64,000 bases of DNA, taken from IMG/VR virus record IMGVR_UViG_3300025626_000004. One strand, written 5' to 3'. A program made the translations under genes and the position numbers. Below, piece by piece: positions 7,599 through 33,099 of this stretch. Position 1 is the stretch's first letter. Every line of letters begins with the position of its first letter. Source of the DNA: a virus. The notes under the pieces were generated by a model. It saw nothing but the letters and a program-made list of their open reading frames with translations, had not been told where the DNA came from and did no database searches.

Positions 7599-10500
7599 AT
7601 GAAGGTCGTTATCGGAACGAATACCATCGTAAAAAAAGTTACTGTCGGAACACCACTTAGAATTGGTTCTGCAGCAAACGGTAGTCTTACCGGATTAGAT
7701 GATGTTAATGGCTCAATAAATCTAGCTGACGGTACAATTCTTCAGTATGATTCGGCTTCTGCCAAATTTAATCACATATCATTATCTGCGGTTGTAGGTG
7801 GTGGACTTACTGTTTCTTCATCAGGCATGGGTTCAGTATCGGAGACTGGCGGAACACTAACATATGTTGGACCTAGCGTTGATAGCGTTCGATCACTATT
7901 TAATGTTACCTATGACAGTAGTGCTATTGGCACACTAATTACGACAGGTGGAACCACTAGACTAACAGGTCCTACACCTAATCAAATTCGTAGTCAATTT
8001 AGTGCCGGAAATGATTTACAATATAACGCTGCTACAGGTGAATTCTCTGTTACGGTCCCAAGCGGATCAGCTGGGTTTGACAGTAACTTCAACACGAAGT
8101 CTACAACAAATCTACCAGAAGGTTCTAACCTATATTATACTGACTCTCGTGGGCGAGCATCTATTTCTGTTAATGATGCAGGCGGATATGGCTCACTTGC
8201 GTATAATGCTCCGACAGGTATATTAACCTATACTGGCCCAAGTCTTGCTGATATAAGATCTGGAATTAATGTTGGTGCGAACTTAGCATACGATTCTGCT
8301 ACAGGTAAAATTACATTTACTGGTTCGTTAGGCGGAACATTCGATTCTGACAATGCGCGTAAGTCAATTAGTGTTGTTGATGCCGGTGGACAAGGTTCGC
8401 TTTCATACAACAATAACACAGGTCAAATATCATACCAAGGAGCGAGCGACTCTGATACGCGCGGGTTGATTAGTGCAACTGGTGATATTGCTTATAATCA
8501 AAACACAGGCATCATTAGTTTTACTGAAAAAACTGATGCACAAATACGAGGGTTGTTTAATGTCAGTGGGGACCTTGGTTACGATACTGGTACTGGTGTA
8601 TTTTCTGTTGATCTCGGATCGGTGGATGTAACTGATTCTGCAGTTACTCGAGCACTATTTTCTGTTACAAACGATGCCGGTGATTACGGGTCACTTGCTT
8701 ATAACGCCGCGTCTGGACAATTTGTATTTACAAAGGTTACTGACTCTGATATAAGAGGATCTTTATCTGCAGCCGGCGATTTGGCATACAATCAGACAAC
8801 AGGCCAATTCAGTTATTCTAAACGAACCGATGCCGACATTCGCAGTTTGTTATCTGCATCAGGCGACCTATCATATAATTCTGGTACTGGTCAATTCAGT
8901 ATTACAACAGGTGCACATTATCAAGACTCAGATGCACGGCATGCCATTAGCTTTAGACACACTGCAGACTCAATTGCTAATGTCAATGAATATGGAACAG
9001 TAACGTACAACCAAACAACCGGTGACGTCGTAATATACGGTACGCGTGATTCTGATATTCGTGGATCGATGAGTTTTGTTGATGCTGGTGGATTAGGTTC
9101 ACTTGCATACAATGAAAATGAAGGTCGAGTTACATATACAGGACCAAGCAATACTGATATCGCCGGAACATTATCGGCTACGACAGATCCTCTCTCAATG
9201 GGTAAACTTACTCTTGATTCTAGCAAAGGCCAGTTTACACTTAAGCTAGAAGATGATAGTGTTAGAGCTTTATTCAGCGTTGTTTCTGATCAACAAGGTG
9301 GAGCGGATCTAACATATGATTCTGCGACAGGTCAATTTGTATTCAGTGGTCCAAGCGATCTCGATCTTAGAAGCAAAATAAGCGTTATCGATGCTGGCGG
9401 TGACGGTTCCCTTACATACTTTGAATCGGGTGGTGTGTTTACATACACCGGTCCAAGTCCTGCCGAAGCACGTGCGCACTTTAGCGGCGGCCTTGGAGTA
9501 AATTATAACGAAGCAACCGGCACATTTAGACTTGACAGCTCTGCAAATATTGTAACTGGTAGCATTGTTACAGGTCAATTAACTTCGGGTATAGTTAATG
9601 CTAACGCCGAATTAAATGCCAATACAATAAACGCGCTGACGGACTCAAGTAATATTACTATTACTGGTAATGCTATTACTCTTAAAGGTACATCAGATCG
9701 CATCTTGCTCGACACTCAGTTTCTTCATACAACAGACAATAGAATTATTTTCGCGGTTGATGATAGTAATACTGCTAACTACCAAGGTGGTGGTTTTCAG
9801 ATTGGTGGCGGGTCAAATTCAAAATATTTTGCCTATAGCGTAGCTAATGATTTCTTTGCTACAAATACTGGTTTGTATATTCCGGGTGATATGTCTGGTA
9901 AGACAATTGACTCGTTAAACAAACGTATAGATGAGCTTCCTGACTCTGCGCAAATGAAAGGTATCCTTTCTGCTGGTCCTGGATTATCCTACGATAATAC
10001 TAACGGCATATATCGGATTATCTCCTCAGGCGTCACAGCAGCCACGTATGGCAACGCCACAAACGTATCTCAGCTTACTGTTGACTCTCTAGGCATTATA
10101 ACTGGTGCAGTTAATACTCCTATATCAGTTGTAACCGGAAATACTTTTGATTCTGTAACCGGTCAGTTAACTATTACGACTGCAACAGACAGTTTTAATT
10201 CTACCATAACGCTAGATCCATTTAGTACAACAAACTTGGCCGAAGGCAATAAACTATATTACACAAGAGCTAGGTTTGACTCGGCACTTGGAGATGCGGC
10301 TTCTACTGCTACTGTTAGATCATATATCAGTGCTGGACAAAGTTTAAACTACAATCCTACAACAGGCGTAGTTTCAACTAATCAGGCACTTGATTCAACC
10401 AGTAATGTTACTTTTAATAATATAGTACAGACCGGCACATTACAAGGACCTGCAGATTTTATTATTGATCCGGCTGCGCACGGCGATGCAACTGGTACGG

Positions 10501-11426
10501 TAAGAATTCTTGGTAATCTTCAGGTTGAAGGTGTACAAACAACTATTAATTCTACTGCAATAAGTCTTAATGATAAGAATATTGTATTAGCTGATAGTGC
10601 AGCAGATTCATCTGCTCTTAACGGTGCTGGTTTAACTATCGGCGGAACAAACATTGTAGACAAGCCTACGTTTACATATGCTCATGCTACTCAAAGATTT
10701 GTATTCAACCGTAATATCCAAGCAGATAGTTTTTATGGTGATGTAACAGGTAACGTGACTGGCAACGTGACTGGTCAAGTATCTGATATATCAAATCATA
10801 GTACAACTGATTTATCTGAAGGTAATAATAAATATTATACTGTTGCCAGAGCTAGAAATGCAATACAGGCCGTAGATGCTGGTGGTGACGGATCATTCGT
10901 ATATGATTCTGCTATAGGCACGATGACATACACAGGCCCTAGTCCTACCGAAGTTCGGGCACATATCTCTGTTACTGATAATGGTGGTGACGGTTCCATG
11001 TCATATAATGCCGCAACAGGCGTTATATCATATACAGGACCTTCTGCATTAGAAACTCGAACTCACCTATCATTGACTGATGCTGGCGGTGACGGATCGA
11101 TGACCTACGATTCTTCGACTGGCGTGTTTGTATACACGGGGCCGTCAGAAACTGAATGGTATCAGCACTTCAAAGACAATGCCGATAGCCTTGGTGATAT
11201 GATATGGGATTCTGCTTATGGAACAAAGGGCGGACTTAGATTACACCCAAGGCATATTACTGGATTAGACGAAGTAGGTGTTGACTCATTCGTTGCTGCA
11301 CAAGAACACTTGATGATATACAGTGGAACTACCGGAAGACTGAGAAAAATTGGTCTTAACACATTAGGATCTGTTGTCGGTGGTGGCGGCGGATCAGGCA
11401 CATTACTTGGTTATATTAATCTGTAG
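7599..11426 (+). CDS. Long tail fibre protein with tandem beta-repeats
   Basis: 1275 aa G/S/T-rich; repeats such as DAGGDGSL.Y...TG.FTYTGPS...R and STTNL.EG.NLYYT. Confidence 0.8.
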   Translation: MKVVIGTNTIVKKVTVGTPLRIGSAANGSLTGLDDVNGSINLADGTILQYDSASAKFNHISLSAVVGGGLTVSSSGMGSVSETGGTLTYVGPSVDSVRSLFNVTYDSSAIGTLITTGGTTRLTGPTPNQIRSQFSAGNDLQYNAATGEFSVTVPSGSAGFDSNFNTKSTTNLPEGSNLYYTDSRGRASISVNDAGGYGSLAYNAPTGILTYTGPSLADIRSGINVGANLAYDSATGKITFTGSLGGTFDSDNARKSISVVDAGGQGSLSYNNNTGQISYQGASDSDTRGLISATGDIAYNQNTGIISFTEKTDAQIRGLFNVSGDLGYDTGTGVFSVDLGSVDVTDSAVTRALFSVTNDAGDYGSLAYNAASGQFVFTKVTDSDIRGSLSAAGDLAYNQTTGQFSYSKRTDADIRSLLSASGDLSYNSGTGQFSITTGAHYQDSDARHAISFRHTADSIANVNEYGTVTYNQTTGDVVIYGTRDSDIRGSMSFVDAGGLGSLAYNENEGRVTYTGPSNTDIAGTLSATTDPLSMGKLTLDSSKGQFTLKLEDDSVRALFSVVSDQQGGADLTYDSATGQFVFSGPSDLDLRSKISVIDAGGDGSLTYFESGGVFTYTGPSPAEARAHFSGGLGVNYNEATGTFRLDSSANIVTGSIVTGQLTSGIVNANAELNANTINALTDSSNITITGNAITLKGTSDRILLDTQFLHTTDNRIIFAVDDSNTANYQGGGFQIGGGSNSKYFAYSVANDFFATNTGLYIPGDMSGKTIDSLNKRIDELPDSAQMKGILSAGPGLSYDNTNGIYRIISSGVTAATYGNATNVSQLTVDSLGIITGAVNTPISVVTGNTFDSVTGQLTITTATDSFNSTITLDPFSTTNLAEGNKLYYTRARFDSALGDAASTATVRSYISAGQSLNYNPTTGVVSTNQALDSTSNVTFNNIVQTGTLQGPADFIIDPAAHGDATGTVRILGNLQVEGVQTTINSTAISLNDKNIVLADSAADSSALNGAGLTIGGTNIVDKPTFTYAHATQRFVFNRNIQADSFYGDVTGNVTGNVTGQVSDISNHSTTDLSEGNNKYYTVARARNAIQAVDAGGDGSFVYDSAIGTMTYTGPSPTEVRAHISVTDNGGDGSMSYNAATGVISYTGPSALETRTHLSLTDAGGDGSMTYDSSTGVFVYTGPSETEWYQHFKDNADSLGDMIWDSAYGTKGGLRLHPRHITGLDEVGVDSFVAAQEHLMIYSGTTGRLRKIGLNTLGSVVGGGGGSGTLLGYINL

Positions 11427-22685: not shown

Positions 22686-23375
22686 ATGGCAAACATAACA
22701 AAAACGTTTAGCTTTAAAGTGCCAGACGACTATACATTACAAGAAGCTTCAAATGATTCCTCGGTTAGCTTTACGTATCATGGTCCGGCATATCTTAGGG
22801 TGCAAATTAATCCTGCAGGCATTATGGAGGGTGTAGAAAGTATTACTCTTGATGAGTGGGTTGCGGAAGGCGATGAAGATGGAGCTGTTTTAGTTAACGC
22901 TGAGGCACAACCTTTAGAAGCTTCTATTTTTTGGGAAATGAGAGATTCTGATATAATGGATCTATCATTGAGAACAAAAACTGGCCCAGATGGATTGGAG
23001 TACAAATATCCGTGGCCGCTGCCACCTCACAAGGCATATGAAGCAACTGCTATGACTTATTCACCAGCATTGCGGTTATGGCAGAAACCTTATCCATTCC
23101 ATCAGCCATGGACTGATTGGAATCTACTTAGTAGGCAAGCGAACAATGTTGCTGCAAATGCAACAGAATGGTTAGCAAAAGATGCGGTTGTTGCGGATTC
23201 TGATCTTACAGTAGCATGGACACGCATTCAAACAGAAGCAATTAATAAAGTTTCAGCGTATTCTGTGGGTGGCTTTCTTCCGCATGAAGTAACATTTAGA
23301 TTTACACCCGAAGATTCTGATCAGGGTGTTATTAATGATGCAATTGCCGCAGCATTAGATTCTGACGAAGGATAA
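22686..23375 (+). CDS. Hypothetical protein ending the Cys-rich operon (possible fibre assembly factor)
   Basis: AAGGA RBS; 229 aa; followed by a hairpin. Confidence 0.6.
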   Translation: MANITKTFSFKVPDDYTLQEASNDSSVSFTYHGPAYLRVQINPAGIMEGVESITLDEWVAEGDEDGAVLVNAEAQPLEASIFWEMRDSDIMDLSLRTKTGPDGLEYKYPWPLPPHKAYEATAMTYSPALRLWQKPYPFHQPWTDWNLLSRQANNVAANATEWLAKDAVVADSDLTVAWTRIQTEAINKVSAYSVGGFLPHEVTFRFTPEDSDQGVINDAIAAALDSDEG

Positions 23376-23402: not shown

Positions 23403-23472
23403 GAAAACGTTTATATATAAACGTATAATGATGATGACTATTCATTTATAATTAATTCTTGTGAGGTGCAAA

Positions 23473-24435
23473 ATGACAAGATCGACAGCGTTCTTTGTAA
23501 ACGGTGGAGCAGGCCGACATATCTGTTCAATCCCAGCATTCGAAAAATATGAAGCCGAAAATCCTGATGATGATTTTATCATTGTCTGTGAGGGCGGTAT
23601 GGACATGTATAAAGGTCACCCGACTTTGCATGCCCGTTCATATGATAACTGGCACAAAAATCTATTCCAAGATAAAATCAAAGATAGGAATTGTGTTACT
23701 ACTGAACCATATCGTGTTTGGGAATACTATAATCAAAAGGCAAATCTAGTTTCAGCCTTTGATATCCAGGTTAATGATAAAGGTTTGCGTGATCTACCAG
23801 ATCCTACTCTATACTTAACTGCTGCAGAACTGATTCAAGGTCAAGATATAATCGATGAAGTTCGTGAAAAAACTAAAAAAGAAAAAGTAATTGTATTCCA
23901 ACCATATGGGCGTAGTACGCAGCCTATGGGTAGTAAAGGTCAACACCTAGTTGATAGTGGTGGTAGGTCATTTGGATTAAACGATACGATTAAATTAATA
24001 AAAAAATTACAGAAAAAATATGCAGTCGTATTATTTTCTGAATTTCAAGGTGATTGGTCTCAGCACGGTATTACTGAACCCGTTGCTCAACCAGAAGGTG
24101 CTCCATTACGTATTTGGGCATCAGCAATTAAAGCTGCAAATGGTTTCTTGGGCTGTGACAGTGTAGGACAACACTTTGCATATTCAACCAAAACTCCGGC
24201 AGTAACTGTATTAGGATCAACATATCAAGAAAATGTAAGTTACCCAGACAATGATATTTTTCAGGTGTTGGATCTTGGCCATGATCGCCGTAAATATGAT
24301 CCTATCCGTATTTCTTTTGAAGAAGAAATTTCTATGGCACATGAAGGTATTATGATGCTATCTGAAGGCGCAATCAATGAGATTGCTAAAGAACTTGATA
24401 TGGTTATTTCAAAGGGTGCTAAAAATGAAAAATGA
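23473..24435 (+). CDS. GT9-like glycosyltransferase (putative ADP-heptose-dependent heptosyltransferase)
   Basis: N-terminal GG.G..IC.IPA; VFQPYG; AIKAANGFLGCDSVGQHFA....PAVTVLGST matches the GT9 DSG..HLA region. Confidence 0.7.
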   Translation: MTRSTAFFVNGGAGRHICSIPAFEKYEAENPDDDFIIVCEGGMDMYKGHPTLHARSYDNWHKNLFQDKIKDRNCVTTEPYRVWEYYNQKANLVSAFDIQVNDKGLRDLPDPTLYLTAAELIQGQDIIDEVREKTKKEKVIVFQPYGRSTQPMGSKGQHLVDSGGRSFGLNDTIKLIKKLQKKYAVVLFSEFQGDWSQHGITEPVAQPEGAPLRIWASAIKAANGFLGCDSVGQHFAYSTKTPAVTVLGSTYQENVSYPDNDIFQVLDLGHDRRKYDPIRISFEEEISMAHEGIMMLSEGAINEIAKELDMVISKGAKNEK

Positions 24436-26236
24436 TATTTGGATTGCAGGTATTGCTAGAGGGCATAATGCTGGTGTATGTCTACTAAAAAACGGTGAAA
24501 TTGTATTTTCTATTGAGGAAGAACGGCTTTCTCGCAGAAAATATGACGGTGGTCCATATGCAGGAATGGTAAAAATTCTTGATTATACCGATAAGCTTGA
24601 TTATTTGGTAGTAGCACACACTCAATCACTTCAGGAAACTGCTGGTAAAGTAGATTTTTCTGGCGAAGATGTGTACACCGGGCTTGCTAGAAAGCTTGGA
24701 TTGATAGATCAAAACATTCAGACGCAGGCGCATCCACAAGTTATCGATATGTCTCAGCAGCACCATAAATTACATGCTGCTGTAGCATTCTATAGGTCTC
24801 CATTTGAGGAAGCAGTAGCACTTATTGCTGATGGTGCCGGTTCAATGATCCCGGTTTCAAACCCAAATACAGGGGAAGGTCTTGCGCTATGGGAATATGA
24901 ATCTATCATTACGGCGTCCTACCCCGCAAACTTTAAGACCATGTACAAACACCTGGGTTGCAGAGATCCATTAGTTGGTGCTGACGCATCATTTAGTGGT
25001 GAGCAATTTGGTGAAGAAGGCGAGTTTGAAGTTATGATTTCAGACCGTGGTGGTATCACTAAAACATATGAGGCTGTTACGCAATACTGTGGTTGGCAAC
25101 CAATAGAAGCCGGCAAAACTATGGGATTATTTCCATATGGTAATGAGAACTCTGACCTAGATAATTTGTTTGATCCTCGTTCACCACATCCTGGCGTATT
25201 TGATAGAAATCTTTTTATTCCAAATGTTCCTAACGGTGCATTTGTGAATGACGGATTCTATAAATTCTTGCAAGCAAATGCAGAACAATATGAAGCCGTA
25301 GATGGAGATGTTACTAAGCTTGATTCTCGAAGAGATATGGCATATGCTATTCAAACTCAGTCTCAAGCTCAAATGGTTAAACTGATCCGAAAAGCCGTAG
25401 AGATGGGCGACACAAAGAATGTAGTGATCTCTGGTGGCTATGGTCTTAATTGTGTGGCAAACTATGCATATCTTGATGCGCTTAAAGATGAAGGGATTAA
25501 CATTTATGTAGAACCGATTTCTAATGATGCCGGTACCGCGATGGGTGCAGCCCTAATGTATTGGCATGCTCGCACTGACGACGAAACTAATAGAGATCTT
25601 AATACTTTGTATTTGGGTCCAGATCACAATTATACTATTGATGATATTGCATTGGCCGTAACAAAGAGTGATACGGCTGTAATGAAAGATGCTAACGATA
25701 AAGACATAGTTGATCTTATTACAAGTAAGAACATCGTAACTGTCTTCCAAGGTCGTTCTGAGAATGGACCACGGGCGCTTGGAAACAGATCTATTCTATT
25801 CGATCCTACACTTGAAGATGGTAAAGATTATGTCAACCTAGTAAAGAACCGTGAGTACTTTAGACCATTTGCTGGATCTATTCTAGCCGAAGACGTACAC
25901 GAATGGTTTGATTTACGCGGAATGGATGAGACACCGCACATGATGTACGCGGTTAATTGTCAACCAGGAATAGAAGAAAAGATTCCGGCTATCATCCACA
26001 TTGACGGGACATGTCGTATTCAGACTGTTACTAAGGAACAAAATCCTTTGTACCATCGTTTGATTACTGCATTCAAAGATAAGACTGGTGTACCTATCGT
26101 GTTTAATACCAGTTTTAACTTGGGGGGAGACCCTCTCGTAGAAACTATTGATCATGCTATCGATACTTTGGAAAAATCAGATATCGAATATCTTTATTTA
26201 CCGGAGCATGGAAAGCTTATCACAGTTTCAAATTAA
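24425..26236 (+). CDS. O-carbamoyltransferase (NodU/CmcH/TobZ family)
   Basis: EEERLSRRK, HH.LHA, DGAG, GKTMGL..YG, SGGYGLNCVAN, DAGTA.GAA, GPRALGNRS, RE.FRPFA, NTSFN. Confidence 0.92.
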   Translation: MKNDIWIAGIARGHNAGVCLLKNGEIVFSIEEERLSRRKYDGGPYAGMVKILDYTDKLDYLVVAHTQSLQETAGKVDFSGEDVYTGLARKLGLIDQNIQTQAHPQVIDMSQQHHKLHAAVAFYRSPFEEAVALIADGAGSMIPVSNPNTGEGLALWEYESIITASYPANFKTMYKHLGCRDPLVGADASFSGEQFGEEGEFEVMISDRGGITKTYEAVTQYCGWQPIEAGKTMGLFPYGNENSDLDNLFDPRSPHPGVFDRNLFIPNVPNGAFVNDGFYKFLQANAEQYEAVDGDVTKLDSRRDMAYAIQTQSQAQMVKLIRKAVEMGDTKNVVISGGYGLNCVANYAYLDALKDEGINIYVEPISNDAGTAMGAALMYWHARTDDETNRDLNTLYLGPDHNYTIDDIALAVTKSDTAVMKDANDKDIVDLITSKNIVTVFQGRSENGPRALGNRSILFDPTLEDGKDYVNLVKNREYFRPFAGSILAEDVHEWFDLRGMDETPHMMYAVNCQPGIEEKIPAIIHIDGTCRIQTVTKEQNPLYHRLITAFKDKTGVPIVFNTSFNLGGDPLVETIDHAIDTLEKSDIEYLYLPEHGKLITVSN

Positions 26237-26256
26237 GAGATGCACCTCTTAGAATT

Positions 26257-26288
26257 AAAGCCGGACATTAGTTTGTCCGGCTTTTTTT
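26257..26288. terminator. Rho-independent terminator between convergent genes
   Basis: AAAGCCGGACA-ttagtt-TGTCCGGCTTT followed by a T run. Confidence 0.75.
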
Positions 26289-26556
26289 AAGAACCCAACC
26301 AAACATCAAAAGAACCGTCTTTGTTAAGTTCTAAGTCTTCAATAAAGACATGATGCTCATCGCCTGACTGAGCGATAAGAGAGTCAACCGCAGTTTGAAC
26401 ACCAATTTGATCAGCTGTAGTAAGGAATGTAGAAACTTCGGCAAATGTATATCCATTTGCATCTTCACCATTGATGAATGTATACGCTATACGAGAGTTA
26501 GCTTTAAGAGTTGCTGGAAGTTCAATGTCACACCATACTGATTTAAAGTTGTTCAT
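26287..26556 (-). CDS. Small hypothetical early protein
   Basis: 89 aa, AG-rich RBS, own early-type promoter. Confidence 0.6.
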   Translation of the reverse strand: MNNFKSVWCDIELPATLKANSRIAYTFINGEDANGYTFAEVSTFLTTADQIGVQTAVDSLIAQSGDEHHVFIEDLELNKDGSFDVWLGS

Positions 26557-26577
26557 TTTGATCTCTCTCTTGTTATC

Positions 26578-26622
26578 TTGTTTCTATAATTAGAATAATA
26601 CATTTGAGAAGTCTTGTACACA
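26578..26622 (-). promoter_or_regulatory. Early-type promoter GTGTAC-N18-TATTCT (45-bp exact repeat, copy 1)
   Basis: Identical to 58078-58122 and similar to 45849-45880; upstream A tract. Confidence 0.75.
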
Positions 26623-26657
26623 GTTAATTTGCAATTAAATGCGTTTTTTTACTTTTT

Positions 26658-27302
26658 TTATAATAAAGATTCTGCAAAGTCTAATAGGTTATTATAAACT
26701 TTAGTCTTCTTCTTAAGAGGTCTATTAGCAAAGCTATTAAACTTTTTCTCATCTTCGCTGTATTTGCCGGTTTTAACTAATATTGGTTTAAGATTAGCTT
26801 TGTCTGCCATCTTAGCATCAACCAACCTATCGCCAACATAATATCCGCCTTTGATAGGAACACGAAACTCATCGCGCAATCGTTTTAACATTGCTGTTTT
26901 TGGCTTAGCATACATATCATCTTTAGAATCAGACATGTTATAGAGCACGCCATCTATACTAGGACACCCAACATCACCGAACAACTCAATCATATAGTTG
27001 TTCATATCTTCTACTTCATCAATAGTTAGTTCACCTCTAGAGATGCCTGGTTGGTCAAAGATGACAGCTAGCTTATATCCTTTAGCCCTAATCATAGAGA
27101 CAGCCGCAAGTGAACCTTCGATAGGGATAAACCTATCTCTAGTTTTAATTCCATCCTTACATTCAATCAAAACACCATCACGGTCGATAGCAATAAGTGG
27201 CTTAGTATATTTCTTATTCAATTGAGATCTATCTAATAGCTGATCAGGAGAACCTTGCTGAATATCAGCCGAAGATTCTTCGCCCCACATGTTAAATGCC
27301 AT
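26658..27302 (-). CDS. gmhB: D-glycero-D-manno-heptose 1,7-bisphosphate phosphatase (HAD IIIA)
   Basis: IDRDGVL, QPGISRG, KPKTAM, YVGDRLVD, ILVKTG. Confidence 0.82.
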   Translation of the reverse strand: MAFNMWGEESSADIQQGSPDQLLDRSQLNKKYTKPLIAIDRDGVLIECKDGIKTRDRFIPIEGSLAAVSMIRAKGYKLAVIFDQPGISRGELTIDEVEDMNNYMIELFGDVGCPSIDGVLYNMSDSKDDMYAKPKTAMLKRLRDEFRVPIKGGYYVGDRLVDAKMADKANLKPILVKTGKYSEDEKKFNSFANRPLKKKTKVYNNLLDFAESLL

Positions 27303-28119
27303 TAATATAATCCAATACGTTAGTCCATTTCATATCAATGTGTTTTGACAGCTGATCAATGTTTGCTTCAGTGAATGTTTGGTAACTGCCTCTAAGTTGA
27401 TCTGGCATAGCAATATGATTAATAGTTACACCATATTTGGTAGCAATAGCTTCTCCAACCGCAGCAAAACTAACCGCATTACCAGTACCGACATTAAATA
27501 TTCCTGATACATCTACGTCGATCATTTTTTCGTGCACTTCGCATATATCGTCAACACATACAAAATCTCTCTTATACTCAGTAGAATTTTCAAATAACAT
27601 TATAGATTCATCAGTAACAGCTTGAAGCTTAAACTTTGTAACAGGAGACGCTTGATTTCCTTTATTACCTTCGAACTTACCATAGGCATTAAAATATCTA
27701 AAACCTTGAATGTTAATTGGCAATGAACCCATCGCTAAGGTTTCTGCGACAAACCTATCGACAAGATATTTGCTCCATGCATAACCATTCATTGGATGAC
27801 AATCATCACCCTCTTTAAACGTTTTACTATTGCCATATACAGATGCTGATGATGCGTATTGAATGTCAATATTCATCTCAAGACATTTAACAATTAGATC
27901 AGTAGTAAATTCATAATTCATTTCCATAAGCTTTTCAGCATTGGTTTCTGTAGTGCTACTAATAGCACCGCAGTGAATTACTAAATCTATACCTTTATGC
28001 AATAGAAGTTCAGGCGTATCTCCATACTCCCAACCTTCTACATTATGACCCTTACTTTTAAAGTAAAGCCAAAGATTCTTCCCGATAAAGCCCTTGTGGC
28101 CTGTTATTAATATATTCAT
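27292..28119 (-). CDS. gmhD: ADP-L-glycero-D-manno-heptose 6-epimerase
   Basis: ITGHKGFIG, GAISSTTE, YASSASVYG, YAWSK, RYFNAYG, RDFVCVDD, GIFNVGTG, YQTFTEA. Confidence 0.9.
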   Translation of the reverse strand: MNILITGHKGFIGKNLWLYFKSKGHNVEGWEYGDTPELLLHKGIDLVIHCGAISSTTETNAEKLMEMNYEFTTDLIVKCLEMNIDIQYASSASVYGNSKTFKEGDDCHPMNGYAWSKYLVDRFVAETLAMGSLPINIQGFRYFNAYGKFEGNKGNQASPVTKFKLQAVTDESIMLFENSTEYKRDFVCVDDICEVHEKMIDVDVSGIFNVGTGNAVSFAAVGEAIATKYGVTINHIAMPDQLRGSYQTFTEANIDQLSKHIDMKWTNVLDYINGI

Positions 28120-28978
28120 TGATTTCATCCATCGCTTCATTAAAATGATTTTGTTGTATAGCATATGTTCCTGAAGTGGCTACTGCTAACCCCGACATTT
28201 TATTTGCTATAATCACGGCATCTTGAACTGGCAGATTATTATATATACCGAAAGCTAACGCAGCGGTAAAAGTATCTCCAGCACCTGTAACATCAAACAC
28301 CTCTTGTGCGGTAGCCGCATAGTGTTCAATGGTATCTCCAACATATAGTACACCATCTGCACCAAGAGTGACAATGAAATGATGAATATCAAGTTCATTT
28401 CTTACTCGCTGTGCTTCTGACATTAACTGCTTAGGAGTTAATGTTTTACCTACATAGTCTTCGAATTCTTTAAGATTTGGCTTTAATATAAAAGCGCCTC
28501 TATATCTGTTTAATGAAACCTTTGGATCGACTATAGTTCTTTTCGATTTTTTAATAATTTTCTGAGGATCTTTTACAGTTCCCTTATTATAATCGGATAG
28601 TACAACTACGTCATATTGATTTGGTACAAAGAATTTATCTTGTACATCGTTATTTTCTATTCTTTTTTCTGCGTCAATTCTCGATACATAATGTGAACCA
28701 GAGAAGATGCGGAGCTTATGTGGCATGCTTTCTATTGATAATAGATTACCAGTCACAGCAATATCATCGAATATGTACTGAAAATCTTTGCTATAATAAG
28801 CATCTAGTGTAACTTGATTGGTCATGCCACGTATATTCATATATACATTACCAGCACCACCCAATGAAATCTTTTTACTATTTAATTCTACTATTGGTAC
28901 AGGGGCTTCTGGTGAGATACGTGATGTATCTCCATACCAGTACTCATCGATGATGAGATCGCCTATCACATGAATCAT
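28058..28978 (-). CDS. hldA: Heptose-7-phosphate kinase (HldE/RfaE domain I, PfkB family)
   Basis: VIGDLIIDEY.YG...RISPEAPVP, LGGAGNV, SDYNKG, VDPK, PNLKE, DVTGAGDT. Confidence 0.92.
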   Translation of the reverse strand: MIHVIGDLIIDEYWYGDTSRISPEAPVPIVELNSKKISLGGAGNVYMNIRGMTNQVTLDAYYSKDFQYIFDDIAVTGNLLSIESMPHKLRIFSGSHYVSRIDAEKRIENNDVQDKFFVPNQYDVVVLSDYNKGTVKDPQKIIKKSKRTIVDPKVSLNRYRGAFILKPNLKEFEDYVGKTLTPKQLMSEAQRVRNELDIHHFIVTLGADGVLYVGDTIEHYAATAQEVFDVTGAGDTFTAALAFGIYNNLPVQDAVIIANKMSGLAVATSGTYAIQQNHFNEAMDEINEYINNRPQGLYREESLALL

Positions 28979-28980
28979 AG

Positions 28981-28988
28981 TATAAATA
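28981..28988 (+). promoter_or_regulatory. T4-type late promoter driving hemO-pcyX
   Basis: TATAAATA about 33 nt before the hemO ATG, with GGAG RBS between. Confidence 0.7.
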
Positions 28989-29020
28989 CCAATCTATTAT
29001 ATAACATTATGGAGTTATTT

Positions 29021-29620
29021 ATGTCTTTAAAACTGTTGACTGCTTCAATACATAAAGAAGCAGAAGAAATGAAGTGGTCTAAATTATTAGTTTCTGGTAA
29101 TATGACAAGAAACCAATATGGTCAATATCTTTATAATCAATTGCAAATTTATTCTGCATTAGAAAATAGAGCTTTCGAATTAGGTTTTTTCAAAAAGTAT
29201 CCTATTTTTTATGGTATAAGACGCACACTTGCGATGAGCGGAGATTTAGCTTATTATGAACATGATATTGGTTTAGAACCTGCTACACTAGATTATATAG
29301 ACTATATATCATATGCATCAGAAGCTGAAGTCATTGCACATATGTACGTTAGGCACTTTGGCGATATGTATGGTGGTCAGATTATTAGAAAGAATCTACC
29401 AGAACCATATTGTGAAGCCGCAGTTAATTCCGAAACTGACGTAAAGCTATGGGAAGAATGTCCTGAAGTATATCAAAGCACATATATATTTGAAAATCGT
29501 CCGGAGCTTATAAAAGAATTTAGAACTCTATTAGATAAGTCTATGGGCGATGATGCTATTTCATGCTTCGAATACGCTATGAGATTATTCTCAGATTTGG
29601 AAAAACGTTTTGGTCTTTGA
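29021..29620 (+). CDS. hemO: Heme oxygenase (biliverdin-producing)
   Basis: LK..T...HKEAE proximal His, Y..YL.N...IYSALE, AHMYVRHFGDMYGGQII, F.YA..LF. Confidence 0.9.
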   Translation: MSLKLLTASIHKEAEEMKWSKLLVSGNMTRNQYGQYLYNQLQIYSALENRAFELGFFKKYPIFYGIRRTLAMSGDLAYYEHDIGLEPATLDYIDYISYASEAEVIAHMYVRHFGDMYGGQIIRKNLPEPYCEAAVNSETDVKLWEECPEVYQSTYIFENRPELIKEFRTLLDKSMGDDAISCFEYAMRLFSDLEKRFGL

Positions 29621-30263
29621 TAAGTTAATTGCCGCCAGCAAAAGGATGCAGAGAATATTAGAAGATAACTCTGTTAGCAACTCTCAACATCCTTTTGACT
29701 GGCCAGCAATTACTTATAAGAATCCAGGGGTATATCGTAGAGCCGACCTAGACATCATTGATGCAAGGCTCGATCGTAAGCTATGGATGATGCATCTATG
29801 CATATATCCGAAAGTTAGCGATCCGTCACCTATTTACGGCTTCGATATAATTGCTGGTCCTAACAAAGTTACTGGTGCCTTCCATGATTTCAGTCCAGTA
29901 GCATTTGATAACCCTATATTAACACAGTTCAAAGAGAATGTAAAACCTTTTATTCCATCAAAACGCAGAGAATTACCTGAGTGGGCAAGAAATATATTTA
30001 GCGATTCTATGGTATCAGCCGGTAATGTTAGAGACGGACAAGAATTAGACGACATTCTAGAATTAGCCATAACTAATCTAGAATATTATCTGACTGCTAT
30101 TGGTGAAGAAAGCGATAAAGATTATACAACTCAACACAATTGGTACTGTAAAAACCAAAAGAAAAATCCCCATACACCAAGGGTGATGGAGACTTTAGGC
30201 GTAGATCCTAAACGTGTTCGGGAATATATTGACGAATGTTTATTTCCTGAAATAGTTAATTGA
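29610..30263 (+). CDS. pcyX: Ferredoxin-dependent bilin reductase, PcyX type
   Basis: [49 protein letters not shown]; adjacent to heme oxygenase. Confidence 0.85.
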
Positions 30264-31445
30264 TTCTTCTAATGCATCAACACATTCTTCTATCATAGCA
30301 TTTGTATGAAGTGGTGTTGGTGCAAATCTCAATCGCTCTTCTCCGACAGCAACCGTTGGATAGTTAATAGCCTGAACGTAAATGCCATGCTCATTTAGTA
30401 ATCTATCTGATATAGCCTTTGCTAGTTCAGCATCACGTATCATAACAGGTACAATATGGGTGCAAGACTTTTCTAATACCTCTATTCCTCTTGCTATAAA
30501 TTCTTGCTTCAATGATTGTGCATTGGCTTGATGTTGGGCTCTGAGGTCAGGATGATCTTTAAGATATTTAATACTAGCCAATGCACCAGCACATATAACT
30601 GGTGAAATACTTGTAGTAAAAATAAAACCACTTGCTTCTAACCTTATAGCATCGATAACAGTTCTATTACCAGCAATATAACCACCGGTTACACCATAAG
30701 CTTTACCTAAAGTGCCATTTACAATATCAACTCGGTCTTCTAAACCAAGCTCATCAAGCTTGCCTGCTGCACTATCACCGTATAAACCAACACCGTGTAC
30801 TTCATCGATATATGTTATGGCTTCATACTTTTCAGCTAAATCACATATAGCATCAATATCTGAAATATCTCCGTCCATACTATAAATTGATTCAAAGACA
30901 ATACATGGAGTAAAGCCGGCTAGTGTAGCTTGTTCTAATTTAATATCAAGATCCATTAAATTATTATGCTCAAACTTAAAGATCTCACATCTACTATGTC
31001 TCATACCTTGAATGAGACTTGCATGGTTTTTGCTATCACTTACCCAACATATATTCTTATTGATGCGAGACAACGCTATAAGTGACCATTCATTTGCAAC
31101 AAACGCACTTGAGAACAGTAATGCAGATTCTTTTTTATGTAGTTTAGCTATTTCATGTTCTAAGGCTACATGATAGTGCGAAGTACCAGATATATTTCTA
31201 GTGCCTCCTGAGCCCGCGCCTGTTTGATCTAGGGCTGTATGCATAGCATCAATTACAACTTTGTGTTGACCCATACCTAAATAGTCATTGCTACACCAAT
31301 TAACTATCTCTTTAATAGCGTATTTACCATACCAAATTGCTTTAGGAAACTTACCTCGTTCACGAATAATATCGTTGAACACTCGGTATTTTCCTTCTTC
31401 TTTAGCTTTGCTTATCGTGGTAGAGAATGGAGTAATATCAATCAT
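30240..31445 (-). CDS. hemA: 5-aminolevulinate synthase (C4/Shemin pathway)
   Basis: [56 protein letters not shown] (PLP Lys), INYPTV..G.ERLRF.PTP.H. Confidence 0.95.
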
Positions 31446-32320
31446 CTATTTAAATACGCTAATACCGCAGTTTCTGCAGATCCGGCGTCTCCTGGATTTT
31501 CTGGAATATATGCATTATATTCTTCGTGTAATATTTTTTGTAAACCCTTATTAAATGCACATCCACCTGTAACAATTAATCGTGGTCTGTCGTATTTGCT
31601 TATTGCGTATTCTATTAAATTACGACACAAATTTTCAAATACAACTTGGGTTGAACCGGCAATTTCTTTTTTGTCATAAGATGGTTTCCAATTACCTATG
31701 CCTCTATGCATATTAATTTTAAATAATGGCTCTGAGCATTCTTTGAACACTAAATCCTTATATATGCTATCTATCACTAAATCGGTGGCATATCCCTTGC
31801 CGAACTTTTCTAATTTACTTTCATCGACTGACGGTTTAAATCCACATCTTTGAGTCATAGAAGAATAAAATAGACCTAGGCTATTAGGATATTTAACTGA
31901 TTTTCTTTGTGTAAGCTTACCATTCTCAGTTGTCCATATAGACGTACAACTAAATTCACCGACTGCATCTATGACAACTATTACGCTAGGAGTTTTATCA
32001 GTCTTATAGTAATGAGCTGCGTGAGATTCGTGATGCCATACAGTTCTATATTTACAGGTTATTCCTAGCCCCCGCAAATACTTGCGGATATTATTACGCT
32101 TAAATGGTTTAGGCTGACCAACTAACCATTGGCGTATTGCCTTAGCCCAAGGTTTTTCGTACCATACAACTAAGTCTGGTTTGCCATACTTAAAAGCTTT
32201 ATCTATTAAACTTTGGCTATGTATGTTTTCAGTTGAATAGTATGTCTTAACACATGTGCTATCTTTAAAAATTGAAATTGTGGCATCATGGCAACCTCCT
32301 ACCATACCCCATATTATCAT
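31442..32320 (-). CDS. Carbamoyltransferase, N-terminal (Kae1-like) domain only
   Basis: [52 protein letters not shown]; lacks the C-terminal YrdC-like domain. Confidence 0.8.
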
Positions 32321-32676
32321 TTTTGGCTGTCGCCTTTAGCAACTCTATAGTTATCTTCAACTGAGTCTGGCGAGGACACTTCAATTATAGTACCTTCTTC
32401 GATACAAAATAACTGATGCGGAACAAGTGGCTCAATTCTAAGTGAATCTCCGGCTTTTAATCTTTGTTTTTTAACAGATGCATCAATAGTGTTTATAGTT
32501 AAAACGTCAAATATGCCTTCAAACACTAACCAAGTCTCATCCTTTATTGCATGAAAATGCATAGAGAATTTAGCACCCTTATTAAAATTTAAAAGCTTAC
32601 CACAATACTTATCGTTAGTAGCAAAAATAAGTTCGTGGCCCCATCCTTTTTCTACCATTCCTTCAAGCCGTGCCAT
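32317..32676 (-). CDS. Cupin protein (mannose-6-phosphate isomerase-like)
   Basis: VEKGWGHE, YCGKLL, FSMHFH..KDETW, PHQL, IEVS.PDSVEDNYRV.KGDSQ. Confidence 0.8.
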   Translation of the reverse strand: MARLEGMVEKGWGHELIFATNDKYCGKLLNFNKGAKFSMHFHAIKDETWLVFEGIFDVLTINTIDASVKKQRLKAGDSLRIEPLVPHQLFCIEEGTIIEVSSPDSVEDNYRVAKGDSQK

Positions 32677-33064
32677 CACAAATCCTTTTAATAATATTAG
32701 TAGTAGAATAACCATCACGTAATTTCAGTGAGACAGTTAGTTTTGCTATGTCTCTTCCTACAATTTGGTCAATTTGGTAATCACCACCCTTAGTAAGTAC
32801 GTCTGGTTTTAATTGTTTAATTAGTTCATACGGCGTGTCTTCGTAGAATATGTATACATGATCTACAAACCGCAATGATTGTAACATATATCTTCTATCT
32901 TCTTCATTATTAATTGGCCTTGAATTACCTTTAAGTCTTCGCACAGATTCATCGGAATTTATGCCAACTATTAGTCTATCACCTAGATTTCTTGATCTTT
33001 CTAGATAATCTAGGTGGCCTCGATGCAAAATATCAAAGCATCCGTTTGTAAATACTGTTTTCAT
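32663..33064 (-). CDS. hldC: Heptose-1-phosphate adenylyltransferase (HldE/RfaE domain II)
   Basis: FTNGCFDILHRGH, VGINSDESVRRLKG..RPIN, EDTPYELI, KGGDY, GYSTT. Confidence 0.9.
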   Translation of the reverse strand: MKTVFTNGCFDILHRGHLDYLERSRNLGDRLIVGINSDESVRRLKGNSRPINNEEDRRYMLQSLRFVDHVYIFYEDTPYELIKQLKPDVLTKGGDYQIDQIVGRDIAKLTVSLKLRDGYSTTNIIKRICDGTA

Positions 33065-33069
33065 AGTTG

Positions 33070-33099
33070 ATTATACCACATTTTAGCATTGTTGTAAAC
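33070..33099 (-). promoter_or_regulatory. Early-type promoter GTTTAC-N18-TATAAT for the hldC-cupin-carbamoyltransferase-hemA operon
   Basis: Reverse complement reads GTTTACaacaatgctaaaatgtggTATAATcaactATG. Confidence 0.7.

Follow-up and report, generated by a model that had tools for sequence, protein, structure and literature searches.

Protein O-heptosylation by GT9-like enzymes is established for TibC and AAH, which transfer heptose from ADP-heptose to serines of beta-helical surface proteins (PMC4358343). O-carbamoyl-heptose is likewise established chemistry, known from the Pseudomonas lipopolysaccharide (LPS) core, where it is formed by WapO (PMC8005017). Among phages, a cyanomyovirus "LPS gene" cluster, T4-GC 302–308, has been described in P-SSM2 (PSSM2_307–313), S-CAM1, S-CAM3, S-SSM7, and P-SSM5 (PMC3037559). 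Cyanobacterial LPS is reported to be free of heptose and Kdo (PMC4390846, PMC4515613), which makes classic inner-core heptosylation unlikely for cyanophage members of the group.

Gene content of the cassette

The window analyzed here is a 64,000-nucleotide stretch of DNA from an uncultured marine T4-like phage, the TerL of which is only 47% identical to those of cyanophages. Positions 23473–33064 encode HldA, a GmhB-like phosphatase, HldC, HldD, a GT9-fold transferase (GT), a NodU/CmcH carbamoyltransferase, a cupin, and a Kae1-like half carbamoyltransferase. A preliminary description of the sequence had placed a block of such genes between the fibre genes and g13; every gene it named was found at its coordinates, and the placement, between the fibre genes and g13/g14/g15/terminase, was confirmed. 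Missing from it were the 292-aa half carbamoyltransferase (31442–32320) and an alaS-hemO-pcyX insert (heme oxygenase, bilin reductase, and ALA synthase) that splits the block at 28970–31445. The cassette is not a one-off. P-SSM2, S-CAM1, and S-SSM7 carry a related one under the published labels "LPS genes" or "hypothetical"; cassettes of this kind are already present, with wrong annotations, in published cyanophage genomes. The features of the locus are:

22686..23375, + strand: 229-aa protein directly 5′ of the transferase; PHROG 9740, function unknown; a conserved neighbour, given as context and not as an enzyme
23413..23429, + strand: promoter-like stretch before the GT; TATATATA box, then TATAAT
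23473..24435, + strand: divergent GT9-fold (GT-B) heptosyltransferase-like protein, 320 aa, PHROG 8954
24425..26236, + strand: full-length NodU/CmcH-type O-carbamoyltransferase (Carbam_trans_N 1.1e-27, Carbam_trans_C 7.3e-58)
26658..27302, − strand: GmhB-like HAD-IIIA phosphatase (PRK08942 2.7e-30, 105 bits; HAD-IIIA 8.5e-19)
27292..28164, − strand: HldD/GmhD-like ADP-heptose 6-epimerase, SDR (TIGR02197 5.3e-69, 233 bits)
28058..28978, − strand: HldA-like PfkB kinase, heptose-7-phosphate 1-kinase (TIGR02198 1.7e-68, 231 bits)
31442..32320, − strand: stand-alone Kae1-like (N-terminal) half carbamoyltransferase, 292 aa (Carbam_trans_N 6.7e-17 only)
32317..32676, − strand: metal cupin, 119 aa (start corrected to 32676)
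32663..33064, − strand: HldC-like heptose-1-phosphate adenylyltransferase (TIGR02199 1.5e-52, 177.3 bits, cut-off 181.5)
33070..33098, − strand: strong sigma70-type promoter-like site in front of the hldC-cupin-Kae1-like-alaS operon

The transferase and its partner carbamoyltransferases

Taken alone, the GT matches no Pfam or NCBIfam family (PF01075, E = 0.25); PF01075 is matched at E ≤ 1 by 35 of 46 members of its own family, with a best value of 1.2e-8. The top Foldseek matches of its AF2 model (pLDDT 86.5) are all GT9 enzymes, namely 3tov, TibC (4rap), WaaF (1psw), and WaaC (2h1h), at E ~1e-9. By hhalign, D229-S-x-G-x-H234 falls on D261-T-G-x-x-H266 of WaaC and R165 on K192, an alignment by which the protein retains the ADP-heptose-binding motif. 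A near-invariant Arg (R15, aligned with WaaC D13) stands at the position of the WaaC/TibC catalytic Asp, and this may mean that the chemistry or acceptor differs from that of known GT9 enzymes, or that another base (E78 or D161) is used.

This Arg would also fit an enzyme system that produces a carbamoylated heptoside, either soluble or linked to lipid, or a GT-like protein that is dead in catalysis and acts as a sugar-nucleotide-binding or fibre-assembly factor. The tailoring genes inserted in the S-SSM7 cassette and other loci (2OG oxygenases, a halogenase, and methyltransferase-like genes) recall natural-product clusters and point the same way, as do 16 loci without nearby heptose genes. 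These outcomes are nonetheless quite improbable. The donor-binding residues D229, S230, H234, and R165, together with D161 and E78, vary little or not at all in a family diverged to 25% identity, and such conservation argues for a working active site. The strict pairing of the GT with an O-carbamoyltransferase for sugars also implies a sugar product.

The two genes lie side by side in 78 of the 80 related viral contigs. As described previously, the carbamoyltransferase is full-length and its gene overlaps that of the GT; it has both the Carbam_trans_N and the Carbam_trans_C domain. The overlap, however, is probably 11 nt instead of 59 nt, since alignments of homologues suggest that the real start is the ATG at 24425; the genes are translationally coupled through an ATG...TGA overlap. 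The Kae1-like half enzyme belongs to PHROG 1601 ("Nol-like carbamoyltransferase"), has the HHxxH motif, carries no YrdC-like domain, and is also found in the four closest relatives.

A further possibility is transfer of heptose by a GT-B enzyme onto 5-hydroxymethylcytosine of phage DNA, with the carbamoyltransferase as the tailoring enzyme. There is precedent in reconstituted phage GT-B enzymes that heptosylate 5hmC (bioRxiv 10.1101/2023.12.21.572611), but such a role is highly improbable here. The complete genomes of P-SSM2, S-CAM1, and S-SSM7 lack both ThyA/gp42-family and Tet/JBP genes (three matches in T4, the positive control), which excludes hmC glycosylation as the conserved function. 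Structurally, the GT matches GT9 enzymes best, with no T4 beta-glucosyltransferase among the matches listed. Moreover, the GT N-domain is not basic, with a net charge of −5 (family median 0 to −2), compared with +8 for WaaC and +6 for WaaF.

Supply genes and the candidate acceptors

HldA, the GmhB-like protein, HldC, and HldD each match their family best by a wide margin, yet score under the NCBIfam equivalog cut-offs. For HldD, the runner-up family is GalE (9e-17), GxxGxxG and YxxxK motifs occur in the translation, and the true start is likely the ATG at 28119. The GmhB-like protein has the DRDG motif I, its sequence is devoid of the Zn-loop cysteines, and it is a candidate heptose 1,7-bisphosphate 7-phosphatase. 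HldA has a homologue in PSSM2_310, the cyanophage protein labelled "putative carbohydrate kinase". Across 44 fully flanked loci, where absence was scored as none within 9–10 kb of the GT pair, the genes of the four-gene heptose set occur together or not at all: 27 loci have all four genes, 16 have none, and one lies at a locus edge. A HAD phosphatase accompanies the full set in 23 of the 27, and loci with heptose genes show four different gene orders. Since 16 of the 44 loci have the GT pair and no heptose genes within that distance, ADP-heptose is a presumed donor.

The absence of gmhA from the window, remarked on earlier, was borne out by tblastn with E. coli GmhA, and no SIS-type GmhA was found in the window, the 80 related contigs, or complete P-SSM2, S-CAM1, and S-SSM7. 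The cyanophage annotation "phosphoheptose isomerase" was rejected, as the protein is a small (~110-aa) HAD phosphatase. The cupin is a real gene with invariant metal-site residues (HxH...E...H), and its presence is all-or-none with hldA, hldC, and hldD. Its PDB sequence matches include D-lyxose/D-mannose, L-ribose, and mannose-6-P isomerases; Foldseek does not discriminate among cupins, with quercetinase, KdgF, oxalate decarboxylase, and CapF scoring equal to isomerases. It is the only unassigned gene strictly co-inherited with the heptose genes, and the best candidate for a sedoheptulose-7-phosphate isomerase replacing GmhA.

The proposed mechanism has two modules, in agreement with the donor-synthesis, transfer, and tailoring set suggested initially. 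The supply module would convert sedoheptulose-7-phosphate to ADP-L-glycero-beta-D-manno-heptose, with the cupin as presumed aldose-ketose isomerase, followed by the HldA kinase, GmhB-like phosphatase, HldC adenylyltransferase, and HldD 6-epimerase. The use module, comprising the divergent phage-specific heptosyltransferase and the coupled O-carbamoyltransferase, helped by the Kae1-like half enzyme, would attach heptose to an acceptor and carbamoylate one of the hydroxyls of the sugar.

Evidence on the acceptor comes from linkage and promoters. Fibre-tip paralogues, which are Cys/Gly-rich, and the 229-aa gene lie upstream of the GT pair in most of the 80 loci, with a homologue of the latter 700–1400 nt upstream of the GT in ~45. 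The 229-aa protein, for which the Atlas gave a weak lead to DUF4376 (score 0.84–0.85), is possibly a fibre-assembly or chaperone protein. A distant GT homologue in Aeromonas phage HJ05, of an unrelated lineage, is flanked by a tail-fibre-like gene on one side and the tail sheath on the other, and heptose genes are lacking. The TATATATA box before the GT differs at one position from the T4 late box, TATAAATA, and the nearby TATAAT is a sigma70-like match. Among 66 unique regions upstream of the GT, [CA]TAAATA occurs in 51 (77%; background 4%) and TATAAT in 31 (background 6%); the late-type motif precedes the structural 229-aa gene at a similar frequency (64%). With a sigma70-type −10 box in about half of these regions, GT expression may not be solely late. 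The promoter-like site at 33070..33098 (TTTACA-17-TATAAT with a TG extension, 11/12) matches better than any other in the region.

Under the classical "LPS gene" reading, the cassette remodels the host envelope: a glycan containing carbamoyl-heptose, placed on LPS or an O-antigen-like glycan, on capsule, or on a protein of the outer membrane or S-layer, would stop superinfection or re-adsorption of progeny to lysed cells. This is the published interpretation of LPS-type genes in cyanophages and pelagiphages (PMC3037559, PMC7029224), and carbamoyl-heptose is known from LPS cores only (PMC8005017). The strong early-type sigma70 promoter of the hldC operon and the TATAAT in half of the GT upstream regions also favor it, as does the location of the supply module in S-SM2 and P-TIM68, away from fibres and beside GT2-type transferases and a capsular-polysaccharide protein. 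Envelope remodelling is still judged rather unlikely. In the cyanobacterial hosts of cultured members the canonical GT9 acceptor is reportedly missing, the non-basic N-domain differs from those of WaaC/WaaF, and linkage to fibre-tip genes and late-type promoters is a property of the GT pair, not of the supply module. Furthermore, the GT family is phage-restricted, with at least 585 viral contigs, just 12 MAG matches of incoherent taxonomy, and no members in isolate bacterial genomes. The host of the window phage may itself have heptose in its LPS.

Inheritance of the use module with fibre-tip genes, and its usual late-type promoter, point to a virion protein made by the phage, in the fibre or its tip, as the most likely acceptor, in preference to Kdo-lipid A. 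The cassette probably decorates a phage-made target such as fibres; a virion protein as acceptor is a serious possibility short of an even chance, and the two-module explanation with that acceptor is held tentatively. The initial proposal of carbamoyl-heptosylated virion proteins gains from the linkage and promoters, but S-SM2 and P-TIM68 speak against its exclusivity. The excess of DS dipeptides, offered as a pointer to such proteins, is real but gives this proposal no support. The window fibres have 34 against 11.1 expected, an excess traced to two repeated motifs (YDS[AS]TG and DSDxRxx[hydrophobic]S), and cassette-flanking fibres of GT-bearing S-CAM1, P-SSM2, and S-SSM7 show none (observed/expected 0–1.2); the signal thus does not track the enzyme.

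Comparison with known systems

The T4-GC 302–308 cluster is a related cassette with most genes in common. Both loci lie between tail-fibre genes and share a Nol-like carbamoyltransferase, HldC, HldA-like kinase, cupin, and epimerase, and the cluster's "hypothetical protein" is GT-like and 41–53% identical. The window differs in having a GmhB-type phosphatase in place of the ~110-aa HAD protein, supply genes in opposite orientation, behind an early-type promoter, the alaS-hemO-pcyX interruption, and the added half carbamoyltransferase.

In comparison with E. coli GmhA-HldE-GmhB-HldD, homologues of HldA, HldC, GmhB, and HldD are present as separate genes; the kinase and adenylyltransferase are split, scores fall under equivalog cut-offs, SIS-type GmhA is absent, and the one strictly co-inherited gene left without an assignment encodes a small metal cupin. 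With WaaC/WaaF, the GT shares the GT-B fold and the D(T/S)GxxH plus basic-residue motif for ADP-heptose, and heptose transfer goes together with a NodU-family carbamoyltransferase as in Pseudomonas, where WaaC/WaaF are joined by WapO, the Hep-II 7-O-carbamoyltransferase (PMC8005017). Unlike WaaC/WaaF, it has Arg for the catalytic Asp and a non-basic acceptor domain, falls under the Pfam threshold, and belongs to a phage-only family, the cultured members of which have hosts whose LPS is reported to be without Kdo and heptose. With TibC/AAH it shares the GT9-like fold, and Foldseek matches are equally good. The phage GT has no sequence-level match to these enzymes, is shorter (320 aa versus TibC chains of 371–390 residues), and carries Arg at the equivalent of TibC Asp-110.

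Gene content and genomic setting of the block

The source of the window is a T4-like marine myovirus. Family scans identified g13, g14, gp15, the small and large terminase subunits, sheath, tube and portal downstream of the block. In its large terminase subunit (TerL) the phage shares 72% identity with C48C1, an unclassified member of the Kyanoviridae, and 47% with cultured cyanophages. Cyano- and pelagimyophages carry a hypervariable "host recognition" island (PMC7029224), and the block is placed in such an island since no cassette was found in C48C1 at the equivalent site, between the fibre genes and g13. C48C1 is also missing among the phages listed with a homologue of the transferase. A megablast search of the phage collection with the entire block as query gave zero matches, and relatives were found at the protein level only.

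Two groups of genes are distinguished here. A 320-aa transferase (GT) and the NodU/CmcH-type carbamoyltransferase directly after it are referred to as the use module, and the heptose genes (hldC, hldA, hldD, a cupin and a phosphatase) as the supply module; together they form the cassette.

Genes of the block (coordinates, strand, product, basis)
23473-24435, +, 320-aa protein (GT); no Pfam or NCBIfam match
24377/24425-26236, +, full NodU/CmcH carbamoyltransferase; both domains
26287-26556, -, 89-aa ORF in the convergent gap between carbamoyltransferase and gmhB
26658-27302, -, GmhB-like HAD-IIIA phosphatase; PRK08942, 2.7e-30
27292-28164, -, HldD-like epimerase, start probably 28119; TIGR02197, 5.3e-69
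28058-28978, -, HldA-like PfkB kinase; TIGR02198, 1.7e-68
28970-29620, +, heme oxygenase; family scan
29610-30263, +, bilin reductase, PcyX/PebS-like; family scan
30240-31445, -, 5-aminolevulinate synthase; TIGR01821, 538 bits, above cut-off
31442-32320, -, carbamoyltransferase half of 292 aa, Kae1-like N-domain only; family scan
32317-32676, -, metal cupin; start corrected from homologues
32663-33064, -, HldC-like adenylyltransferase; TIGR02199, 1.5e-52

The preliminary description had named HldA, GmhB, HldC and HldD genes, a cupin and a full carbamoyltransferase in this block, and all of these are borne out. The four heptose enzymes are the best NCBIfam matches of their genes, with the next families far behind, and each lies under its equivalog cut-off. 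The described overlap of GT and carbamoyltransferase genes also exists, most likely as an ATG...TGA coupling of 11 nt and not 59 nt. Family scans of the 89-aa ORF were empty and no homologue occurs in the 80 viral loci compared below; it may not be a gene and is left out of the system.

The full carbamoyltransferase combines a Kae1-like N-domain (PF02543, 1.1e-27) with a YrdC-like C-domain (PF16861, 7.3e-58). The 22 homologues compared all keep H113, H114, H117 and D136, which are taken here, by analogy with TobZ, to be the metal ligands. The Kae1-like half enzyme at 31442-32320 has the HHxxH motif and no YrdC-like domain, and extra short "Nol-like carbamoyltransferase" genes occur in cyanophage S-SSM7. 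The half enzyme suggests a second carbamoylation, or another acyl-adenylate transfer, that would use the C-domain of the full enzyme. A NodU-type carbamoyltransferase of a cyanophage genome has been read as an enzyme of pyrimidine biosynthesis (PMC9146016), a reading that the Carbam_trans_N/C content does not support.

The heptose genes are interrupted by heme oxygenase, bilin reductase and 5-aminolevulinate synthase genes (28970-31445). Adjoining gp13, this triad corresponds to published viral contigs of the Shemin pathway, and the alaS-hemO-pcyX genes fall in a described group of uncultured marine phages with an AlaS nearest to that of Pelagibacteraceae (PMC11480375). The four closest relatives (L006-L009) have the heme oxygenase and bilin reductase genes and lack an alaS match.

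Conservation of the cassette was analyzed in 80 viral loci. GT is followed by the carbamoyltransferase in 78 of these, and the remaining two end too early. Shortly upstream of GT, most loci have fibre-tip paralogues rich in Cys and Gly, together with a homologue of the gene for a 229-aa protein that immediately precedes GT in the window (22686-23375, +); this homologue is kept right before GT in ~45 of the 80. The 229-aa protein itself has an acidic, DS-rich C-terminus and a weak Atlas lead to DUF4376 (0.84-0.85). Among 44 loci extending at least 9 kb to both sides, 27 have hldC, hldA, the cupin gene and hldD together, 16 have none of the four, and the last has only a cupin gene, at the locus edge. 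A HAD phosphatase accompanies the full heptose set in 23 of the 27, and the set occurs in four different gene orders. Many metagenomic loci have 1.5-3 kb of additional genes between carbamoyltransferase and hldC. In S-SSM7 (L004, 13052-16660), this interval holds genes for a 2OG-Fe(II) oxygenase and a tryptophan halogenase, along with denV and a second carbamoyltransferase-like gene.

A related cassette lies among the fibre genes of the cultured phages P-SSM2, S-CAM1 and S-SSM7. The cyanophage cassette has been published within "LPS gene clusters", with its significance given as unknown (PMC3037559). Labels on related cassettes in reference cyanophages include "LPS genes", "hypothetical protein", "phosphoheptose isomerase", "cysteine dioxygenase" and a pyrimidine-synthesis gene (PMC9146016). 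The related cassette is thus already in published genomes, under annotations that are largely wrong.

The two modules are separable, since S-SM2 and P-TIM68 have the supply module alone, away from the fibres, in islands with GT2-type transferases and a capsular-polysaccharide protein. In P-TIM68 (L104, 3911-9195), the supply module lies near hli genes and adjoins a glucosyltransferase, two dehydrogenases and a transketolase-like gene, the last of which could act as a feeder of sedoheptulose-7-P. Aeromonas phage HJ05, a 79-kb non-T4-like myovirus, has a GT homologue flanked by a tail-fibre-like gene on one side and the tail sheath on the other, with no heptose or carbamoyltransferase genes nearby. 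Distant GT homologues were also found in 31 Vibrio phage records.

Fold and family of the transferase

An AF2 model of GT was built from a 28-sequence alignment (pLDDT 86.5, pTM 0.88). The predicted structure is a two-Rossmann GT-B fold that is nearest to solved GT9 enzymes: ranks 1-29 of a Foldseek search against the PDB are all GT9 (E 1e-9 to 1e-7), including the Veillonella GT9 3tov, TibC, WaaF and WaaC. Only this fold comparison gave matches, as a GT-family profile search of PDB sequences found nothing. The window GT scores under the cut-off of 22 against PF01075 (E=0.25, 11.1 bits), and 35 of 46 relatives match that family at E<=1, the best at 1.2e-8. By these profile scores, GT is a distant branch and not a curated member of PF01075.

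Alignment with E. coli WaaC and WaaF (hhalign) sets R165 opposite K192, and D229-S230-x-G232-x-H234 opposite D261-T262-G263-x-x-H266. Of these GT residues, R165, D229, S230 and H234 are invariant or at least 98% conserved in the 46 relatives; E78, P79, Y80 and D161 likewise vary little or not at all, even among sequences with as little as 25% identity. The loop after the first strand reads G-G-A-G-R in GT versus S-M-G-D in WaaC. In this low-probability alignment, R15 falls opposite the catalytic D13 of WaaC, inside the G-x motif that precedes a conserved P-A; the placement agrees with the beta1-loop-alpha1 position in the AF2 model, and 43 of the 46 relatives have Arg there. The catalytic Asp of TibC, D110, is the equivalent of WaaC D13 (PMC4358343). 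Net charge of the N (acceptor) domain is -5 in GT (family median 0 to -2) versus +8 in WaaC and +6 in WaaF, a crude comparison that counts as weak evidence only. A complex prediction of GT with the carbamoyltransferase scored 0.00 and was counted neither way.

The GT family corresponds to PHROG 8954, with 2821 matching proteins in a large protein collection and relatives on at least 585 viral contigs. A GT with 99% identity to that of the window is carried by a contig of 156,820 nt. A scan of cellular genomes gave only 12 matches, in MAGs of incoherent taxonomy (Chitinophagales, Methanobacteriota and Neomarinimicrobiota among them). These are read as mis-binned phage contigs, so that no bacterial context is usable for inferring the acceptor.

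Proposed supply of ADP-heptose and a candidate role of the cupin

The absence of gmhA from the window, as first described, is confirmed: tblastn searches with E. coli GmhA were empty there and in the 80 loci. TIGR00441 (GmhA) likewise matched none of five records (complete P-SSM2, S-CAM1 and S-SSM7 plus two viral contigs) and did match the E. coli control genome. Proteins of ~110 aa are labeled "phosphoheptose isomerase" in cyanophages. They start with D-x-D-G-T, followed by the HAD motifs GKP and DD, and on these motifs are almost certainly small phosphatases replacing GmhB, not isomerases.

Genes labeled "phosphoheptose isomerase" in RefSeq, with HAD motifs
L003 14021-14365, P-SSM2 (PSSM2_311)
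L001 12922-13245, S-CAM1

The cupin gene is the sole strictly co-inherited gene without an assigned pathway step. Conversion of sedoheptulose-7-P to D-glycero-D-manno-heptose-7-P parallels, among the heptoses, that of fructose-6-P to mannose-6-P. The metal site of the cupin (HxH...E...H) is invariant and its model is of high confidence (pLDDT 92.7). HMM matches include D-lyxose/D-mannose isomerases (2y0o, 7nzo), an L-ribose isomerase and a mannose-6-P isomerase (7zvm), with weak Pfam matches to PF01050 (PMI C-terminal) and PF07385 (lyxose isomerase). These matches make it a real possibility, a little short of an even chance, that the cupin would be a sedoheptulose-7-P isomerase in place of GmhA; a new enzyme family would then close the pathway gap. 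Foldseek ranked non-isomerase cupins equal to isomerases for the cupin model, and a CapF- or WbuC-like epimerase role is one alternative. Another is an isomerase provided by the host.

Timing signals and possible acceptors of the sugar

The window has more T4 late boxes (TATAAATA) than expected, 20 versus 9.2. The + strand carries 18 of the 20, and many lie just 5' of + strand genes of the virion block, g13 included. Upstream of GT are a hairpin, a TATATATA box and TATAAT. Across relatives, [CA]TAAATA occurs within 120 nt before GT in 51 of 66 unique sequences versus a 4% background, and TATAAT in 47% of unique upstream sequences; the same [CA]TAAATA motif precedes the 229-aa structural gene in 64%. 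The entire cassette is co-directional after a late-type site in P-SSM2-type loci. In the window, the supply genes lie on the opposite strand, and the hldC operon has the region's best sigma70-type site. Late-type control of GT, as these motifs suggest it, fits a virion role and would not be exclusive to one.

Carbamoyl-heptosylation of virion proteins had been proposed at the outset, with the position among virion genes and a DS (Asp-Ser) signal as its grounds. An excess of this dipeptide in the fibres is real: the 1275-aa fibre (7599-11426) has 34 DS versus 11.1 expected (3.1-fold), the 1323-aa fibre is 2.1-fold over expectation, and the SD dipeptide is not enriched in either. The DS sites sit in repeats of the forms Y-D-S-[AS]-T-G-x-hydrophobic and D-S-D-x-R-x-x-hydrophobic-S; the 1275-aa protein is built of these two recurring motifs, which account for its threefold excess. 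Cassette-flanking fibres of the GT-bearing S-CAM1, P-SSM2 and S-SSM7 have no DS excess (observed/expected 0 to 1.2), and the GT-free C48C1 and S-RIM8 give 0.5 to 1.75. DS is therefore rejected as a sequon at the family level. It does not track the enzyme and reflects the fibre repeats of this lineage. The sequon part of the proposal lacks support, and virion decoration itself stays, tentatively and at less than even odds, the single most likely reading of the cassette.

Modification of the host surface is a serious rival. Reports describe cyanobacterial LPS as free of Kdo and heptose (PMC4390846, PMC4515613), which weakens this rival for cyanobacterial hosts; the argument may not apply to the host of the window's phage. 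Were the sugar placed on the host surface, this would be an unusual case of viruses giving heptose chemistry to hosts with heptose-free LPS. DNA glycosylation, in which GT would put heptose on 5hmC, draws on phage GT-B enzymes able to do so (bioRxiv 10.1101/2023.12.21.572611). As a conserved function it is ruled out by the absence of any ThyA/gp42-family or Tet/JBP gene from the complete genomes of the cassette-bearing P-SSM2, S-CAM1 and S-SSM7, with T4 as positive control.

The fuller form of virion decoration is that these phages carbamoyl-heptosylate their own fibre tips by a full ADP-heptose pathway of their own, with a cupin for GmhA and a GT9 branch without the catalytic Asp. This combination is rather unlikely as a whole. 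If true, phages of Gram-negative hosts would gain their first case of a virion glycosylation system, and a new sedoheptulose-7-phosphate isomerase family would come with it. Sugar on fibre tips would give a new view of host recognition, of shielding from antibodies and lectins, and of host-range evolution in abundant ocean phages.

Relative to the E. coli ADP-heptose pathway, counterparts of HldA, GmhB, HldC and HldD were found in the window, whereas a SIS-type GmhA was not. GT shares with GT9 the fold and the ADP-heptose-binding residues but departs from it in two features of membership: its score is under the Pfam threshold, and Arg is aligned with the catalytic Asp. It is therefore best classed as a GT9-like branch specific to phages. 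Similarity to the protein heptosyltransferases TibC and AAH (BAHT) was seen at the level of the fold, and the TibC chains are longer than GT by 50-70 residues. By analogy, the system may act like a GT9 heptosyltransferase combined with a heptose carbamoyltransferase of the WapO kind (PMC8005017), or like TibC/AAH protein heptosylation.
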